This document shows, in pieces, positions 1 to 31,520 of a stretch of DNA of 31,520 nt. How positions within the stretch are numbered: position 1 is the first letter of the stretch; each line of letters begins with the position of its first letter. Where the stretch lies: the IMG/VR virus record IMGVR_UViG_2917870735_000002. One strand, 5' to 3'. The position numbers were made by a program, and so were the translations under genes. The notes below the pieces were generated by a model, which saw nothing but the letters and a program-made list of their open reading frames with translations, ran no database searches and was not told where the DNA came from. The stretch comes from a virus. Taxonomy: Duplodnaviria > Heunggongvirae > Uroviricota > Caudoviricetes.

Positions 1-129
1 CTATTTATCGGAAGGTTTATCTTGCTGCGGTTTGTTGTTGACCATATCGCACAACATCGAGAGCAGCATTAACCGTACTTTAAAGGGAGAGTGACTAAAC
101 ACGCGCATACACCTCTTGAACTCATTCAT
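1..129 (-). CDS. small hypothetical protein (42 aa)
   Basis: Not in ORF track (<60 aa). ATG at 129-127 on minus strand with AGGAGG about 5 nt upstream; stop TAG at 3-1. Translation MNEFKRCMRVFSHSPFKVRLMLLSMLCDMVNNKPQQDKPSDK. Function unknown. Confidence 0.35.
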   Translation of the reverse strand: MNEFKRCMRVFSHSPFKVRLMLLSMLCDMVNNKPQQDKPSDK

Positions 130-296: not shown

Positions 297-1337
297 CTAA
301 GCTGTCGCGACATTTTTGCGACATTTTAAGGGGTTAAGTCGCACGGCATCTTCAAGGTGGCTTGGGGCGAAATGGGCATAACGCATTGTCATAGTGATGT
401 CAGCGTGGCCGAGAATTTTTTGCAGAACCAGAATGTTTCCGCCGTTCATCATAAAGTGGCTGGCAAATGTATGGCGCAGTACATGGGTAAGCTGGCCGGA
501 GGGGAGTTCAATGCCTGCACGTTCCAGAGCAGAGCGGAAAGCGTTGTAGCAGGGCTTGGGGAACAGAGCGCCTTTTGTTTCAGGTAATTCGGACAGAAGT
601 TCATCATCAAGGGGAATTGTTCTGTTGCGCTTCCCTTTGGTTTTGACGAACGTGACTTTACCCCCGGCGATCTGGGAGCTTTTCAGCGTTGCCGCCTCAT
701 TCCACCTTGCGCCGGTAGCAAGGCAGATTTTGACAACTAATTCTAGGTACTTAACTTTACTTCGTTTGCATTCCAGTAAAAGCCGATCAATTTCTTCGGT
801 AGTGAGGAAAGCCATTTCGGTTTCATCAGTACGATACTGTCTGACGTTTTCTAGTGGGTTGGGTGCTGACCATTCACCAATCCGTTTCAGCTCGTTGAAC
901 ATAGCCAGGAAGTAAGCATGTTCAAGGTTCATAGTTTTCGGGGAAACCTTAGATACTCTGTTGGTACGGGCATAATGCCCATCCAGCCTTTTAGCGCGGT
1001 AGGCTGTGAACAACTGGGCATTAAATTCTGTGGCCAGCGGGAATCCCATGCATTCCGCCGCCCAGGTCATAGCATTTTTACGCTTTTCGCCATTGCTCAA
1101 AGCTACGCCGTGGCGTTCATACCACATGTTGATTAGGTCGCTTAGAGTACGGAGGTCTTTACCCTCGCCAAGCCAGGGGGAGTTCTCCACTTGCTGAAGC
1201 GTATAGTTCTCGTAGGCCAGGGCTTCGCCTTTTGTAGCGAATTTTTTACGAATACGCTTACCGGCTTTACCATTGCTTCGATCCACCGTGTAGAAATCGG
1301 CAATCCACTGGCCATTTGTTAATTTTCTTACAGACAT
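297..1337 (-). CDS. int: tyrosine integrase, P2 Int family
   Basis: 346 aa. N-terminal GKxGKRIRKKF arm-binding motif; catalytic region LATGARWNEA ... HVLRHTFASHF ... LGHADITMTMRYAHF (R, H-x-x-R, Y) as in P2 Int from memory. 3' end faces the left flank, as in P2 where int reads towards attP. Confidence 0.93.
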   Translation of the reverse strand: MSVRKLTNGQWIADFYTVDRSNGKAGKRIRKKFATKGEALAYENYTLQQVENSPWLGEGKDLRTLSDLINMWYERHGVALSNGEKRKNAMTWAAECMGFPLATEFNAQLFTAYRAKRLDGHYARTNRVSKVSPKTMNLEHAYFLAMFNELKRIGEWSAPNPLENVRQYRTDETEMAFLTTEEIDRLLLECKRSKVKYLELVVKICLATGARWNEAATLKSSQIAGGKVTFVKTKGKRNRTIPLDDELLSELPETKGALFPKPCYNAFRSALERAGIELPSGQLTHVLRHTFASHFMMNGGNILVLQKILGHADITMTMRYAHFAPSHLEDAVRLNPLKCRKNVATA

Positions 1338-8676: not shown

Positions 8677-10448
8677 GCAGCCTCTTTCCTTACACCCCAG
8701 CGGGATTTAGGTTTGTTTTCATAGTTAAGGGGTTCGTTATGCAGACCGTGGGTAATCGCCCAGAACGCCTCCGCGTGGCCAGTATCCTGGCTGCGGTCAG
8801 CGACAAACGTCATGGCGTTGCCGCTTTGTGTGGTGGTTCGGCGCACAGACATAAAGCTGGCAGCGATCTCTTTCAGGTTTTTATCCCACTCAATACGTTG
8901 GCTTTCCACCACGTCCACCGCTTTCAGCACCAGTTGATTTTTGGTGTTCAGGTCGTAACGAATAGGGACGGCCACGCGCATGGCAAAATGCTGAATGTTG
9001 TCAAAAACACCTTGGCCAATGCCGGTAACGTCCACACCCAGATAAGTGAAGTTGTATTTTTTAACCAATTGCTCGATCTGTTTTGCCTGGTACCGGAAGT
9101 TCATGCCTTTCCAGTAAATCACCTTCAGAACGCGGAATTTCTCCACGGCGAGTATCGGCGGTGCGATGATGACAAAACAGGACAAATCACCGCTGCGAGC
9201 CGGGTCAAAGCCACCCCATACCGGCCTGTCACCAAATGGCCGCGCTGCATCAGGGTTGTGATCCTGCCAGGTGTCGATTTCAACACCGCAGGCTTCCAGA
9301 TCGGAAAAGCTGAAAACGGAATCTTTGCTGTCAACGAACACGCACATATAGAGCATGTTAAAAGTGGCGTCGTTGTAGCGGTTGCGAAGTTTCTCGATGT
9401 TCGCCAGGTTGAAACCGCCCGCAATGGCATCTCCCATCGTAATGACGTAGCGCCATTGCCCATCCGGGCAGAGTCGCCCGCCGTCACGCATTTCGTTAAA
9501 GGACGGAAACTTAATGGCCGCACGTTTTTTACTGCCTTGTTTCCACTCATCGCCCGTCCAGAACGGGTAAGCCTGGTGCGTTTTTGCCGATGGCGTTGAA
9601 AAATAGGTGATGCGCCACTTGTCATGTGTGGCCATTGCGCTGGCCACTTCGTTAAGTTTTGCAAAGTTTGGCACCCAGAAATATTCGTCACAGTACAGGT
9701 GGCCACTGTAGGACTGGGCGGTGTTTTTGTTGGTGGAGAGAAAACGCAGTTCTGCGCCGTTGCTTAAGCGGATCGGGTTGCCGGTTAGCGTAATACCGAA
9801 ATACTGCTCTGCAATATTCACGATGTAAGACCGGAACACTTCAGCCTGTGCTTTTGACGCTGACAGAAAGATTTGCGGATCGCCGGTCATCACCGCATTT
9901 TCAAACGCTTCAAACGCAAAATACCAGGTCGCACCGATCTGGCGGCTTTTCAGGATGTTCCTGACAAGCTGGCCAATGTTATTGCGCAGGTGTTTCTGAT
10001 ATTCAAAAAGATGTTCCTCAGCCCATGCGTCAAAGTCCTCCTGCGTCAGCGACGTAATATCGTTTTTCTTGTATTTCCGTTTGCTGCGTGGTTCGTCGTC
10101 ATTGTTGCCCCGCGCAGCTGCTTGCCCGGAACTCTGACCGCTGGCCATTTTCTCTTTGTGTTTATTACTCTGCGCACGCAGTTTCGTGGCATGAGCAATG
10201 AGCATGTCCATTTCTTTCAGGTCGAGATCGGTTTTGTTATCGCGGCTGGCCAGCAGCTGGTAACGGCGTTCAATTGCTTCCTCTGTGCTTTCAAAACTGA
10301 GCAAATCCGCCCAGCTGTATTTCTCCGCCCAGTAGTAAATGATCCGCGCATTCGGCAGATTTAATTCAGATGCGATTTCCTTTGGCGTATAGCGGCGCAG
10401 ATAAAGTGCGCGAACAACGCCTTTTAATTCTTCAGAGTATTTAGCCAT
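8673..10448 (-). CDS. P: terminase large (ATPase) subunit, P2 gpP family
   Basis: 591 aa, same length class as P2 gpP; divergent from O/N/M/L exactly as in P2; coupled to Q. Confidence 0.88.
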   Translation of the reverse strand: MAKYSEELKGVVRALYLRRYTPKEIASELNLPNARIIYYWAEKYSWADLLSFESTEEAIERRYQLLASRDNKTDLDLKEMDMLIAHATKLRAQSNKHKEKMASGQSSGQAAARGNNDDEPRSKRKYKKNDITSLTQEDFDAWAEEHLFEYQKHLRNNIGQLVRNILKSRQIGATWYFAFEAFENAVMTGDPQIFLSASKAQAEVFRSYIVNIAEQYFGITLTGNPIRLSNGAELRFLSTNKNTAQSYSGHLYCDEYFWVPNFAKLNEVASAMATHDKWRITYFSTPSAKTHQAYPFWTGDEWKQGSKKRAAIKFPSFNEMRDGGRLCPDGQWRYVITMGDAIAGGFNLANIEKLRNRYNDATFNMLYMCVFVDSKDSVFSFSDLEACGVEIDTWQDHNPDAARPFGDRPVWGGFDPARSGDLSCFVIIAPPILAVEKFRVLKVIYWKGMNFRYQAKQIEQLVKKYNFTYLGVDVTGIGQGVFDNIQHFAMRVAVPIRYDLNTKNQLVLKAVDVVESQRIEWDKNLKEIAASFMSVRRTTTQSGNAMTFVADRSQDTGHAEAFWAITHGLHNEPLNYENKPKSRWGVRKEAA

Positions 10449-27262: not shown

Positions 27263-27316
27263 TGCTGACACTCACATGATAAGTTGAAACGTTCTGGACT
27301 TGCTGATAGCAGTATT

Positions 27317-27913
27317 TCAGTTGTTGTGTAGTTCAAGATAGTTAGAGGTGGAGTGCGTATCAAGCGGTAGTAGTTGTGCGGCTCTGCGGGTTATAAAGAC
27401 ACTATTGGCAGGAATGTTTCGGTTAACGAATGACATAGCACCAATTGTCACATTATCACCAATGGTCAGATCATCACCGATGATGCATGAATTTGCGCCA
27501 ATCTCGACATTGTCTCCGATCCTGATGGCTTTGATTCCTTCAACTGTTTTTAATCCAATCGTTGTGTTTTGTCGGATACGAACATTTTTTCCAATCACAG
27601 CCTGGGGACAAATGACTATTCCAACGAAGTGATAAATTTTGAATTTTTCCCCGATCTGTGCCCCCAATCCAATATCAGTATTGTATTTTGAAACAAGTCT
27701 CCGGTGGATTCTTCGTGCCCACTTAATACTTGATTTCCCTCCCTGACAGTAAAGGCAATTCGCTATCCTCCACCAACACATGAATCTGTGTCCGGGTTGT
27801 CTCCAGCAACGTAGTATGATTCTCCTCCAGGAGAAATTTTTACTGCTGTGCAGTATGTCCGCGCACAACAACTTCTTCATATCCTCATAATGCGACTTTT
27901 TGTTGTTGCTCAT
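27317..27913 (-). CDS. hexapeptide-repeat acetyltransferase, serine acetyltransferase (CysE)/WcaB-like
   Basis: 198 aa; ATG 27913 with AGGGAGA upstream. Helical N-terminus (HRFMCWWRIANCLY) then left-handed beta-helix repeats (DIGLGAQIGEKFKIYHFVGIVICPQAVIGKNVRIRQNTTIG ... IGDNVEIGANSCIIGDDLTIGDNVTIGAMSFV) paralleling the CysE core pattern. AT-rich; convergent with the last tail gene. Confidence 0.75.
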   Translation of the reverse strand: MSNNKKSHYEDMKKLLCADILHSSKNFSWRRIILRCWRQPGHRFMCWWRIANCLYCQGGKSSIKWARRIHRRLVSKYNTDIGLGAQIGEKFKIYHFVGIVICPQAVIGKNVRIRQNTTIGLKTVEGIKAIRIGDNVEIGANSCIIGDDLTIGDNVTIGAMSFVNRNIPANSVFITRRAAQLLPLDTHSTSNYLELHNN

Positions 27914-27928
27914 AAATTATTCTCCCTA

Positions 27929-27945
27929 ATAATCCTGAGGATTAT
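27929..27945. promoter_or_regulatory. 17-bp perfect palindrome ATAATCCTGAGGATTAT adjoining the acetyltransferase RBS
   Basis: 8-bp arms around a central G, verified base by base; 16-32 bp upstream of the start codon at 27913. Confidence 0.45.
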
Positions 27946-28466
27946 CGTACATGAGAATGATCTGATTTTCTGCTAACAACATTAAGTTATGTGGTCGGAA
28001 CTGATAATTGGCTACTTAATCCCAAATAATTAGTTGAATTACTAACAAAACATCTTTCTTATCTTGTCATAGATGTCGGCAGAGGGATTATTAACCCTTT
28101 AATAACAAACCTAACTTGGTCACTAAGTATAAAAGAACAGAATTGTAGCGTTGCGCTGGTATGGTGATATGGCGACAAAATAAATCCTTTGCAGACAAAA
28201 ACGGCGCTACACCGCACCCGCCTGCGGTTTCTGGATCTGGAAAATTTTTCAGTTTTATTTTTTTACAAACAGCACCGCCAGACCGCGCCACGGTTGGCTG
28301 CTTGCCAAAGAACAGGAACTGAAAAGATTGAAAAGAATTTCAGCATTTTTCAGTTTAGAGGATCTGTAAAGGATCTAAGTGGAAAGGCAAGCAATTGAAA
28401 TATAATAATAAATTTTATATTTGTGGAGTGGAGAAGATCAAATGTCGAAGGCAATGTGTAGGAGGA

Positions 28467-28499
28467 AAAACCCGCAATGCCAGTTGTGGTGCGGGTTTT
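28467..28499 (-). terminator. rho-independent terminator-like hairpin (10-bp stem AAAACCCGCA/TGCGGGTTTT, 13-nt loop)
   Basis: Perfect stem verified; on the minus strand the stem ends in UUUU followed by UCCUCC; about 70 bp downstream of the minus-strand 122-aa gene. Confidence 0.55.
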
Positions 28500-28566
28500 A
28501 GGGGGATTAGATTAAATTCAGAAAGTGAAATTAGCATACCTATACTTTAAGTGCGCCAATAGGTAA

Positions 28567-28935
28567 TCAATTTTCATCAATATGACTTTCGTTTTCATCT
28601 TTGTACCATGTGGGCAAATTATCTGTAATTTGTTCATTAATTACATTTTGAGTGTCAGCAGGTAGCAGTTTAAAAATCTCAAAAATAAAGTTTGATATTT
28701 CAACTTTTACATCAGCAGTAGGGCCATAAAAATCATCTTTAACATAATCCCATTTATGCTTTATTAAAGTTGATTCTGGATATTGTATTTTGACTAAGCC
28801 AATTTGTTTGTAAATCCAATTTATGGCGCTATCTGCTCCAGAGAAGGCCTCATTACCGCTATTAATAAATGGCCCAACATCATAGACACGTTTAGTGTTA
28901 TTATCTAAAACTCTTACATAACAATTGGTTGCCAT
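28567..28935 (-). CDS. hypothetical small acidic protein (122 aa)
   Basis: ATG 28935 with AAGGTGG upstream; 15 bp after the 104-aa gene on the same strand; AT-rich; acidic C-terminus. Confidence 0.6.
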   Translation of the reverse strand: MATNCYVRVLDNNTKRVYDVGPFINSGNEAFSGADSAINWIYKQIGLVKIQYPESTLIKHKWDYVKDDFYGPTADVKVEISNFIFEIFKLLPADTQNVINEQITDNLPTWYKDENESHIDEN

Positions 28936-28950
28936 ACCCCACCTTTTTTA

Positions 28951-29265
28951 TTAGCCAATGTACCGTACACGATTGCCGTTATATAATGGCCATTCGTTTA
29001 GCAAATCTCTAAGTAGTCTTTCCATGTGAGTTGCATCTTCTGCTGCATTTTTTCCAACATAGTCATTTCCACGTTGGAAAGTTTCATAACGCATTGCCAT
29101 TGATGGGGTGTTTTCTTCAAAGCCAATTGGAGACAAATCATTTATTTGTGTAACTGCTACATCGCCAGATTTAGATACCCAGAGAATATGATGACCTGCG
29201 TTATCGTCGCAAGCAGAGATTAGTTGTGAGAGTTGGCTTACTGTAGGGTTATTGTTTAAGTTCAT
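28951..29265 (-). CDS. hypothetical small protein (104 aa)
   Basis: ATG 29265 with AAGAGG 8 nt upstream; first gene of a two-gene cassette. Confidence 0.6.
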   Translation of the reverse strand: MNLNNNPTVSQLSQLISACDDNAGHHILWVSKSGDVAVTQINDLSPIGFEENTPSMAMRYETFQRGNDYVGKNAAEDATHMERLLRDLLNEWPLYNGNRVRYIG

Positions 29266-29474
29266 TTAAATACCTCTTTTAATAAGATTTAGTTATAACG
29301 TAAAACAAGCCACAAATTGATTATCTATCCTCATAGGCTGCATATCAACTTTAGATTTTAGGCGGTGTGGATCGTGGTAAGCCAGAGATTATAGAGATAA
29401 GCCCGCTTGTAAGAACTGGCGCGGGCTGCACGTAAATTTATGAAATCTTCACAACTGAAATTTGTTCAGCGAAA

Positions 29475-30101
29475 TTACAGCACTGTTTCTGCGGAACGGG
29501 ACGCTTCTTTTGTCGCATTGCCAGTGATAAAAGGCTGCTTTTCCTGATATTCCGACTGCGGTAGTTTGGATGTATACACTGGCGTGATCTTGTTTTTATA
29601 AACGGTGTCACTGGGGATGTTCTGAAGCACCAGTGAATGCGCACCAATGGTGACATTGTTTCCGATTGTAATCTTGCCGCCCAGAATGGACGAGTTACAG
29701 CCAATATCAACATGATCACCAATGATTATCATTGCGTCGACACTGTCGGTGCGTAACCCTATGGTGATGCCTTGCTTCAGGTCGGCGAAATCACCAATCA
29801 CGCAATTGTCAGTAATGACAATACCGTTCAAATGAGCAATGTTTAACCCCTTGCCGATTTTGCACGACAGAGAAATATCAACGCTGTGCCGGTACTTGAG
29901 GCGGTTTTCAATTCTGCGGGCAATGCGCTTTTTGAACTTACTATTCTGGCCATAGAGCCATGAAGCAATACGCCACCAGAACAGGAAGTGCTTCTTCTGG
30001 TTGCGTCGGGTACGAAGTAACGCTTTACGCCATGAAAAGGCTTTGTCATGGCCAATGACTTCAAGGCGGATACATTCTTTACGATGGTCGTAGGAAGTCA
30101 T
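29475..30101 (-). CDS. hexapeptide-repeat acetyltransferase, CysE/WcaB-like (divergent paralog of 27317..27913)
   Basis: 208 aa; shares N-terminal motif (FSWR..., WWRIASWLY) and beta-helix repeats (IGDFADLKQGITIGL ... IGDHVDIGCNSSILGGKITIGNNVTIGAHSLV) with the other acetyltransferase. Confidence 0.75.
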   Translation of the reverse strand: MTSYDHRKECIRLEVIGHDKAFSWRKALLRTRRNQKKHFLFWWRIASWLYGQNSKFKKRIARRIENRLKYRHSVDISLSCKIGKGLNIAHLNGIVITDNCVIGDFADLKQGITIGLRTDSVDAMIIIGDHVDIGCNSSILGGKITIGNNVTIGAHSLVLQNIPSDTVYKNKITPVYTSKLPQSEYQEKQPFITGNATKEASRSAETVL

Positions 30102-30210
30102 GATTAGTCATCCTGACAGAATATTATAGGTACTTGAAATTATGCTTCCATTTGATTGCTAATGGAAGAGAATGGCCATATTTTGAATTTTATAAAAAAT
30201 ATGAGGGAGT

Positions 30211-30245
30211 ATCACCCTTACCACTCATGGAGTGGTAAGGGTGAT
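30211..30245. repeat. 35-bp inverted repeat ATCACCCTTACCACTC-atg-GAGTGGTAAGGGTGAT (16-bp perfect arms)
   Basis: All 16 pairs verified; between the 411-aa gene stop (30285) and acetyltransferase 2 start (30101). On the minus strand a T6 run lies about 10 nt after the stem. Confidence 0.8.
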
Positions 30246-30284
30246 TGAACTAAGTAAATATTGTAGAATAATCGAGCTAAAGTT

Positions 30285-31520
30285 TTAGAGGTGAAACCAA
30301 GAATAAGTAGCTTCATCTTTTTCAAAAATATACTGTATATGTAATTCAACTAACCAGAGACTAACTATTTTAAGCGTAAGTTTATTACATAAATGAATAT
30401 ACCTTGTATAACTTATTTCTCTTTCAGCTCCTGTACCCCCACTTTTGTATCGAACAGATTCTCCATCATGCCATATTGATGCGTGATGCGAGCCATTCCT
30501 AATTGTAGATTCTAAATCATCTTCACAAAAGGCGGTAAATAATTCATTGTCTTTAAATGGATTTATCTTTCCTTCTTTATTAACATCTTTTATATATTTG
30601 TTTAGTGTCATTGTTTTGAATTGATCAAAACTCCTTCCATTAATAATGTTATTAATGCAGGCTAATATTGTCATGTTAGATGTTAAAGTTTCATAAGCAT
30701 CACCATAGTAATTACGGATTTTATCAAAGTTTTTTGAACTGATGATTTTGGTGTCAATTTCATCGTTGTTTATTCTTGCGTAATATATTAGTTGGCCAAA
30801 ATGATCTCGACGAGACATGAAGTCTGATATGATGTTTATATATCTTTGTTGATTTTCAACCTGTAGGTTTTGTTTATAAAATTTATAGAAATCGTCCAGT
30901 AATCCATTTTTTTTAAGCTCGTCAATTTCTAGCTTTATAGGTTCGGCAATGTCATGAACACGAGGGTAGAAAAGCCAATCTAAAAACTCATAACTAATTG
31001 AAGTGAAAGAGTACATTGAATCCTTTTTGTAAAGAGGTAATTCTTCATTTCGTGACTGCATGTATAATTTTGCTGTACGCTGTGCTTTTTCTATTTCCCC
31101 ATTGTTAATAAGTTTTGCAATGGATTTTAAATAAGCCCATTTTGACGGAGCGTTAGGAATATCAAATTGGTGTGAAATGCTGATAATTCTTTGTCCAGGT
31201 GGCATCCTCATATGCTTATGGAGCATGCTCGTTAACTCAAGGGATGGGAAAGTTGTTGGTGAATGAATTTCATCTTTGTCGAAAGCACAAGCTGGGTGAA
31301 AATTAACTACTTTATGTTCTAAGCTATATTCAACAATAATACAATTTTCTTCAACTTGAATGTAAGCGCTGGGGGGAATAGCTTTTACAGCAAAAACAAT
31401 TGGCATATTACATTCAAAACAATCCATGAAATGCTTTTGATATTTATCAATTCCGACCCCAACCCTTACACGATAAATAGCGTTACATGACTGACATTGG
31501 ATGCTATTACCGATTACCAT
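30285..31520 (-). CDS. hypothetical Cys-rich protein (at least 411 aa); zinc-ribbon-like N-terminus; 5' end at window edge
   Basis: ORF runs to the last base; first ATG is at 31520-31518 so the true start may lie outside. N-terminus has CQSC-x22-CFEC spacing; very AT-rich; no recognisable catalytic motif. Confidence 0.6.
   Translation of the reverse strand: MVIGNSIQCQSCNAIYRVRVGVGIDKYQKHFMDCFECNMPIVFAVKAIPPSAYIQVEENCIIVEYSLEHKVVNFHPACAFDKDEIHSPTTFPSLELTSMLHKHMRMPPGQRIISISHQFDIPNAPSKWAYLKSIAKLINNGEIEKAQRTAKLYMQSRNEELPLYKKDSMYSFTSISYEFLDWLFYPRVHDIAEPIKLEIDELKKNGLLDDFYKFYKQNLQVENQQRYINIISDFMSRRDHFGQLIYYARINNDEIDTKIISSKNFDKIRNYYGDAYETLTSNMTILACINNIINGRSFDQFKTMTLNKYIKDVNKEGKINPFKDNELFTAFCEDDLESTIRNGSHHASIWHDGESVRYKSGGTGAEREISYTRYIHLCNKLTLKIVSLWLVELHIQYIFEKDEATYSWFHL

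Follow-up and report, generated by a model that had tools for sequence, protein, structure and literature searches.

What a perfect 35-bp inverted repeat is doing between a cysteine-rich (Cys-rich) cargo gene and an O-acetyltransferase gene, close to the right-hand end of a P2-like prophage, is the question raised by this locus. The initial annotation had offered three readings of it: a terminator of the upstream gene, an operator at which a dimeric regulator would control the acetyltransferase cassette, and a recombination site. The analysis presented here points to a form of the first, in that the palindrome is probably the protective or insulating 3'-end stem-loop of the transcript of the moron-like Cys-rich cargo gene. 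The coordinates of the features discussed are shown in Table 1.

Table 1 Features around the palindrome at the right-hand end of the prophage, in window coordinates
Feature	Position	Strand	Remarks
Cys-rich cargo gene	30285..31520	-	411 aa; N-terminal CxxC...CxxC beta domain, C-terminal helical domain
Perfect hairpin	30211..30245	-	16-bp stem and 3-nt loop, in the 3' UTR of the Cys-rich cargo gene
Segment from the hairpin to the acetyltransferase start	30102..30210	-	Small hairpin, weak promoter-like match, TATAAT hexamer
T6 (U6) run	30194..30199	-	11-nt spacer ACTCCCTCATA from the stem base
Hexapeptide-repeat O-acetyltransferase 2	29475..30101	-	Gene downstream of the hairpin
Canonical terminator-like hairpin with adjacent T-run	28201..28215	-	Consensus scan; 3' of the unit of acetyltransferase 2, 104-aa ORF and 122-aa ORF

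The prophage, its cargo block and the Cys-rich gene

The window, that is the whole stretch of 31,520 nucleotides that was analysed, contains Escherichia coli mntS (positions 1-129, minus strand) and a P2-like prophage of the Quadragintavirus type of approximately 31.6 kb, inserted between mntS and mntR. The match of prophage-free E. coli genomes to the window, at 98 % identity, covers positions 1-213 and ends there, and the host-prophage junction lies at about position 213. From position 297 on, the window carries P2-like genes (integrase, repressor, Cox-like, replication, portal, terminase, capsid, tail and baseplate), and the closest named relatives are the phages ESSI2_ev015, ev040 and ev129 of the Peduoviridae genus Quadragintavirus. 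The sequence beyond the right end was read from locus L004 (GCA_004745215.1, PDHW01000016.1), where 394 bp (9607-10000) separate the Cys-rich gene from mntR. An att-like core, GCTATATTATA, lies at 199-209 of the window, within the att core at 199-213, and again about 280 bp past its right end, so that the prophage ends, beside attR, with the palindrome and the Cys-rich gene as its last features. GC content is about 0.5 in the phage core and falls to 0.33-0.45 over the final 4 kb of the window, where all genes lie on the minus strand. A 17-bp direct repeat, CGCGACATTTTTGCGAC, was also observed at window positions 306-322 (the last codons of int) and at 9785-9801 of L004, about 200 bp past the right end, and GCGACA motifs akin to it occur near attR in L003; the repeat and the motifs may be arm-type sites of the integrase. 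The palindrome was itself considered as an att site and rejected, as no repeat of at least 9 bp links its region with the left end of the window and as the junction and the matching core are both placed elsewhere.

DNA homology with the Quadragintavirus-type phages and prophages that share acetyltransferase 2 ends at about 30121-30130, 20-30 bp upstream of the start codon, from which it follows that the hairpin is part of the inserted cargo block and not of the acetyltransferase cassette, and that it moves together with the cargo gene, as expected of a moron terminator. The 155 bp from this breakpoint to the stop codon of the cargo gene, palindrome included, were found solely with this Cys-rich allele. 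Phages ESSI2_ev015 and ev129 have the acetyltransferase followed by attP and int without a cargo gene, E. coli strain 160-11H1 has the acetyltransferase followed by a reverse-transcriptase gene, and a Cys-rich gene of 79 % identity is found with different neighbours in other E. coli prophages integrated between mntS and mntR. The Cys-rich gene thus has the features of a prophage moron, being missing from the same site in related phages and having a GC content of 0.33 against about 0.5 in the core. A promoter-like sequence, TTTAAA-18-TAGAAT, is located 36 nt upstream of its ATG in L004; such matches occur at chance frequency. As a separate observation, the whole region from the 567-aa spike gene to attR (window 27300-31520) is a variable cargo hotspot, which in relatives holds a retron-like reverse-transcriptase gene (L003 7000-8600), different small ORFs (L007 5237-6200), one or two hexapeptide O-acetyltransferases, or nothing. 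Cargo hotspots of this kind have been documented for P2-like prophages (PMC13586616; PMC9122126). The hotspot also includes about 200 bp without an annotated feature (28173-28385), 81-87 % conserved in many E. coli prophages, in which gene callers give short overlapping ORFs only and which contain the canonical terminator-like hairpin at 28201-28215 on the minus strand.

The product of the cargo gene was modelled with AlphaFold2 (pLDDT 90, pTM 0.91) as a four-cysteine beta domain joined to a helical C-terminal part. The C-terminal domain contains an invariant R341-N-G-S-H-H346 motif, and R341 and H345/H346 of this RNGSHH (Rx4H) motif are unchanging across 57 homologues, of which about 195 are detectable in total for the protein. 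The helical HEPN fold and the conserved Rx4-6H motif were both found, and searches in Pfam, PADLOC, NCBIfam, PDB sequences and Foldseek returned nothing useful for the protein. Its C-terminus, WFHL, aligns with those of the orthologues, which indicates that the stop codon is authentic. In Enterobacter, where the Cys-rich gene lies at the end of P2-like prophages, its neighbour is an Abi_C-domain gene, and in L020-L024 such a gene was observed directly upstream of it. It is plausibly an uncharacterised HEPN-type defence or abortive-infection candidate. As a widespread single-gene family (zinc-ribbon and HEPN-like) at an att-proximal hotspot of P2-like prophages, it is a candidate anti-phage gene, and this gene context is of more interest than the palindrome itself. 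Enterobacter-type lineages (L012 5279-6052; L020 4289-5062; L026) have the Cys-rich gene followed by a conserved 257-aa gene without a Pfam match, a partner that suggests a two-gene variant of the system.

Geometry, stability and rarity of the palindrome

On the plus strand the palindrome is arranged as ATCACCCTTACCACTC-ATG-GAGTGGTAAGGGTGAT, with arms at 30211-30226 and 30230-30245 that are complementary at 16 of 16 positions (100 %) around the 3-nt centre. In minus-strand RNA the 5' arm would run from 30245 to 30230, the loop, CAU, from 30229 to 30227 and the 3' arm from 30226 to 30211. Eight of the 16 pairs are G-C, and the element has a GC content of 50 % compared with about 0.33 locally. 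It starts 39 nt past the stop codon of the Cys-rich gene, on the same strand, and is separated from the start codon of acetyltransferase 2 by 109 nt. The initial annotation had described a 35-bp element of 16 perfect pairs with a 3-nt centre, situated in an AT-rich intergenic region between these two genes, and this description is borne out in each respect. Its judgement that the repeat is far beyond chance also held: no other perfect inverted repeat with a loop of at most 10 nt in the 31.5-kb window is as long, the runner-up having arms of 10 bp, and the longest perfect arm in 100 dinucleotide-preserving shuffles of the window was 7-13 bp, 16 bp never being attained. The predicted RNA fold of the palindrome has a free energy of -28.1 kcal/mol (z = -7.8), and the same sequence folded as DNA has -17.7 kcal/mol (z = -8.0). 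Two small ORFs over the palindrome (15 aa on the plus strand, and 43 aa with a TTG start on the minus strand) were discarded, having neither a sensibly spaced ribosome-binding site nor conservation.

The element is single within the window, where no second copy of an arm was found with up to 3 mismatches and no second 12-mer core of the arm with two mismatches allowed. A blastn search with positions 30102-30300 against 5,426 complete E. coli genomes gave no copy of the palindrome, the exact 35-mer and a relaxed 25-nt core gave none in 185,579 GTDB species-representative genomes, the relaxed core gave none in IMG/VR, and blastn against phage and plasmid collections gave AT-rich noise only. A REP/BIME-type repeat, against which the initial annotation had proposed that the same palindrome be sought elsewhere, was rejected on the strength of these searches. 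In JGI metagenomes the sole match to the relaxed core was on an AT-rich contig of mitochondrial type, L025, with ORFs that are group-II-intron-like and LAGLIDADG-like. Its palindrome (289-323, TTATCCCTTACCACTC-AAT-GAGTGGTAAGGGATAA) lies beside tRNA-like sequence and agrees with that of the window in the inner 12 bp of each arm; it was judged a coincidence and not a relative, hairpins being very abundant in that metagenome collection. No Rfam match was significant (the best had E = 0.11 and fell far short of the gathering score), and a match to mir-5681, which scored 23.8 bits where the gathering score is 88, was dismissed as sub-threshold noise. No tRNA or tmRNA relation of the palindrome region was found. 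Near-identical copies of the element number three in total, the window's included, the other two being in L005 and L019; among the three samples, one is identical over 7.5 kb and another comes from a different host background. The copies differ by 0 substitutions in the 183-nt intergenic region versus 8 in the 1,236-nt Cys-rich gene, and with only three copies of so little divergence no covariation test is possible and the conservation carries no weight.

The palindrome as a probable RNA 3'-end stem-loop

The 3' flanks of Cys-rich orthologues were compared in 13 distinct lineages, in 11 of which (79 % to 36 % protein identity) the gene closes its transcription unit. A stable hairpin was present in the 90 nt that follow the stop codon in 10 of these 11 (z from -1.6 down to -4.7 or -7.1), the hairpins being mutually unrelated in sequence and mostly of 6-13 bp, and the 90 nt preceding these genes had no excess structure (z -0.8 to +1.4). 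No hairpin (z about 0) was found in the two tested lineages in which the co-directional 257-aa gene follows about 45-55 nt downstream; a third locus with this partner, L026, repeats the intergenic sequence of L012. The hairpin thus recurs where the gene ends its unit and is missing before a co-directional partner, a pattern that points to a function at the RNA 3' end. Textbook intrinsic terminators occupy the equivalent position in L016, L033 and L031, and hairpins without an adjacent U-tract, as in the window, are found in L021, L027, L028 and L029. Judged from these sequences, the palindrome would therefore be this lineage's unusually long version of the family's 3' stem-loop. Hairpins are common after gene ends, and the comparison supports the kind of element and not a particular mechanism.

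Among Rho-dependent E. coli transcripts, stable stem-loops that lack a U-tract are found at steady-state 3' ends, with rut sites just downstream (PMC6061677). The palindrome, like the hairpins of L021, L027, L028 and L029, has the corresponding form, a stable stem-loop that is not directly followed by U-rich sequence. The 78 nt past the hairpin are C-rich and G-poor, and their C/G ratio of 2.29 exceeds the regional median (1.0) but not the local 95th percentile (2.5); this segment is rut-like without being exceptional, and is compatible with the Rho picture without being compelling. A second, small perfect hairpin with an 8-bp stem was noted at 30145-30168 on the minus strand (CTTCCATT-AGCAATCA-AATGGAAG), where it falls in the 5' leader of the acetyltransferase or over a weak -35 region.

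We infer that the palindrome is transcribed, and it is on this footing that the following effects on RNA are proposed. Transcription of the minus strand would form the 16-bp hairpin in the RNA soon after the stop codon, and the hairpin would block 3'-to-5' exonucleases and so fix and stabilise the end of the mRNA. It would also mark the point at which transcription of the cargo unit uncouples from the downstream acetyltransferase cassette. Since stem and U-run are not adjacent, release of RNA polymerase would more probably be Rho-dependent or inefficiently intrinsic than efficiently intrinsic. Against a 3'-end reading stands the length of the perfect 16-bp stem, which exceeds functional need. 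The palindrome is a real and statistically exceptional element, yet of an ordinary kind, one more transcript-end stem-loop. As a plausible boundary of the cargo transcription unit it is of help in annotation and construct design and matters little alone; if the hairpin governs the stability of the mRNA of a toxic nuclease, it would be part of keeping the gene safe in lysogens.

Alternative explanations and known systems

Two alternatives likewise place the function of the palindrome in RNA. A canonical Rho-independent terminator acting efficiently at the end of the Cys-rich gene, in which the hairpin and the nearby T-run release the polymerase, would account for a stable stem with G-C pairs, a loop within the usual 3-8 nt and a location 3' of the end of a co-directional gene (the 411-aa ORF); the T6 run on the same strand, which the initial annotation had put at about 10 nt from the repeat, is there, and three orthologues have canonical terminators at this place. 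Canonical geometry, however, requires the U-tract to begin 0-2 nt after the stem, and here the U6 follows an 11-nt spacer, ACUCCCUCAUA. The first 8 nt past the stem, ACUCCCUC, would make a stable GC-rich RNA:DNA hybrid, and the consensus scan that called the canonical site listed in Table 1 did not call the palindrome. An attenuator, in which the 3' arm would pair with downstream CUCCCUCAU to give a U-adjacent terminator, was rejected: this best U-adjacent alternative fold has only -6.4 kcal/mol and would compete with a main stem of -28 kcal/mol. Efficient canonical termination is for these reasons markedly unlikely, and of the initial annotation's terminator the strand, the distance and the orthologue hairpins at the same place speak for an element ending the upstream gene, and the distant U-run and negative scan speak against a canonical intrinsic one. 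An RNase III site with retroregulation of the lambda sib type, at which cleavage of the stem would strip the Cys-rich mRNA of its protective end, make it less stable and detach it from the acetyltransferase message, finds some encouragement in the length and perfect pairing of this double-stranded RNA stem, which lies in a phage 3' UTR, and the smallest substrates of E. coli RNase III are hairpins of comparable size. The hairpins of the orthologues are mostly too short for such cleavage, which would make it a peculiarity of one lineage, and this reading is considered very unlikely.

Other alternatives act at the level of DNA. An operator, where a dimeric regulator on the palindrome would control a promoter of the acetyltransferase cassette, would explain the perfect dyad symmetry and the overlap of the 3' arm, at the edge of the stem, with the -35-like hexamer of a promoter-like sequence on the minus strand (GTGATA-17-TAAAAT, 30215-30187, a 9/12 match), and a TATAAT hexamer lies at 30128-30123. 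Promoter-like matches are nevertheless at chance level in this AT-rich region (20 found against 15.6 +/- 4.4 expected), no further half-site occurs in the prophage even with 2-3 mismatches, 35 bp is about twice the length of a typical dimer operator, and relatives with the same acetyltransferase are wholly without the element. The P2 Ogr/Delta-type late-promoter dyad TGT-N12-ACA, read by eye, is absent from 30102-30300, and the cassette ORFs on either side gave no match to a DNA-binding domain, so that control through an operator here is distinctly improbable. A by-product or site of cargo exchange, whether a template-switch palindrome at an insertion junction or a hairpin or cruciform used by a recombinase, with no role in expression, is unlikely. 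It would suit the position of the palindrome about 80-90 bp from the homology breakpoint, inside a hotspot of a documented kind (see above) that varies between relatives from the reverse-transcriptase gene of L003 and the small ORFs of L007 to nothing in ESSI2_ev015, and perfect 16-bp pairing suggests a young or self-correcting structure. The breakpoint is, on the other hand, not at the palindrome, which has no flanking direct repeats and no second copy, other cargo variants at the hotspot lack it, and it is unlike attP, the att cores lying at the two prophage ends described above; the strand, the distance from the stop codon and the positional analogues in orthologues all fit the RNA model. 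It is highly improbable that the hairpin is a partner RNA bound or cleaved by the HEPN-like protein (in self-regulation, as a decoy or in RNA-antitoxin-like control of a putative abortive-infection toxin), or a DNA hairpin promoting the exchange of defence cargo at the att-proximal hotspot.

The palindrome may finally be set beside known systems. Like REP/BIME elements it spans about 35 nt, occupies an intercistronic or 3' site and could stabilise the mRNA upstream of it, and it differs from them in being single-copy, unrelated in sequence and without a significant Rfam match. Operators of dimeric phage regulators, such as the CI sites of phage 186, have similar dyad symmetry with promoter-like sequence nearby, but the palindrome is twice as long as is usual for them, has neither further sites nor a cognate regulator, and is located outside the switch region. 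The lambda sib hairpin, an RNase III site downstream of int, is likewise a phage 3'-UTR hairpin that could set mRNA stability, but the palindrome is not beside int or attP, being about 1.6 kb from the att core. With canonical intrinsic and prophage-moron terminators it has in common a stem of 50 % G-C pairs, a short loop, a place past the stop codon on the coding strand and the bounding of low-GC cargo, and is set apart by a U-tract that is offset by an 11-nt GC-rich spacer. Compared with the Rho-dependent 3'-end stem-loops (Dar and Sorek 2018, PMC6061677), the palindrome has an unusually long and perfect stem with a U6 11 nt away, and like them it is stable, lies soon after a stop codon and has no direct U-tract; the sequence that follows it is C-rich and G-poor, though not exceptionally so.
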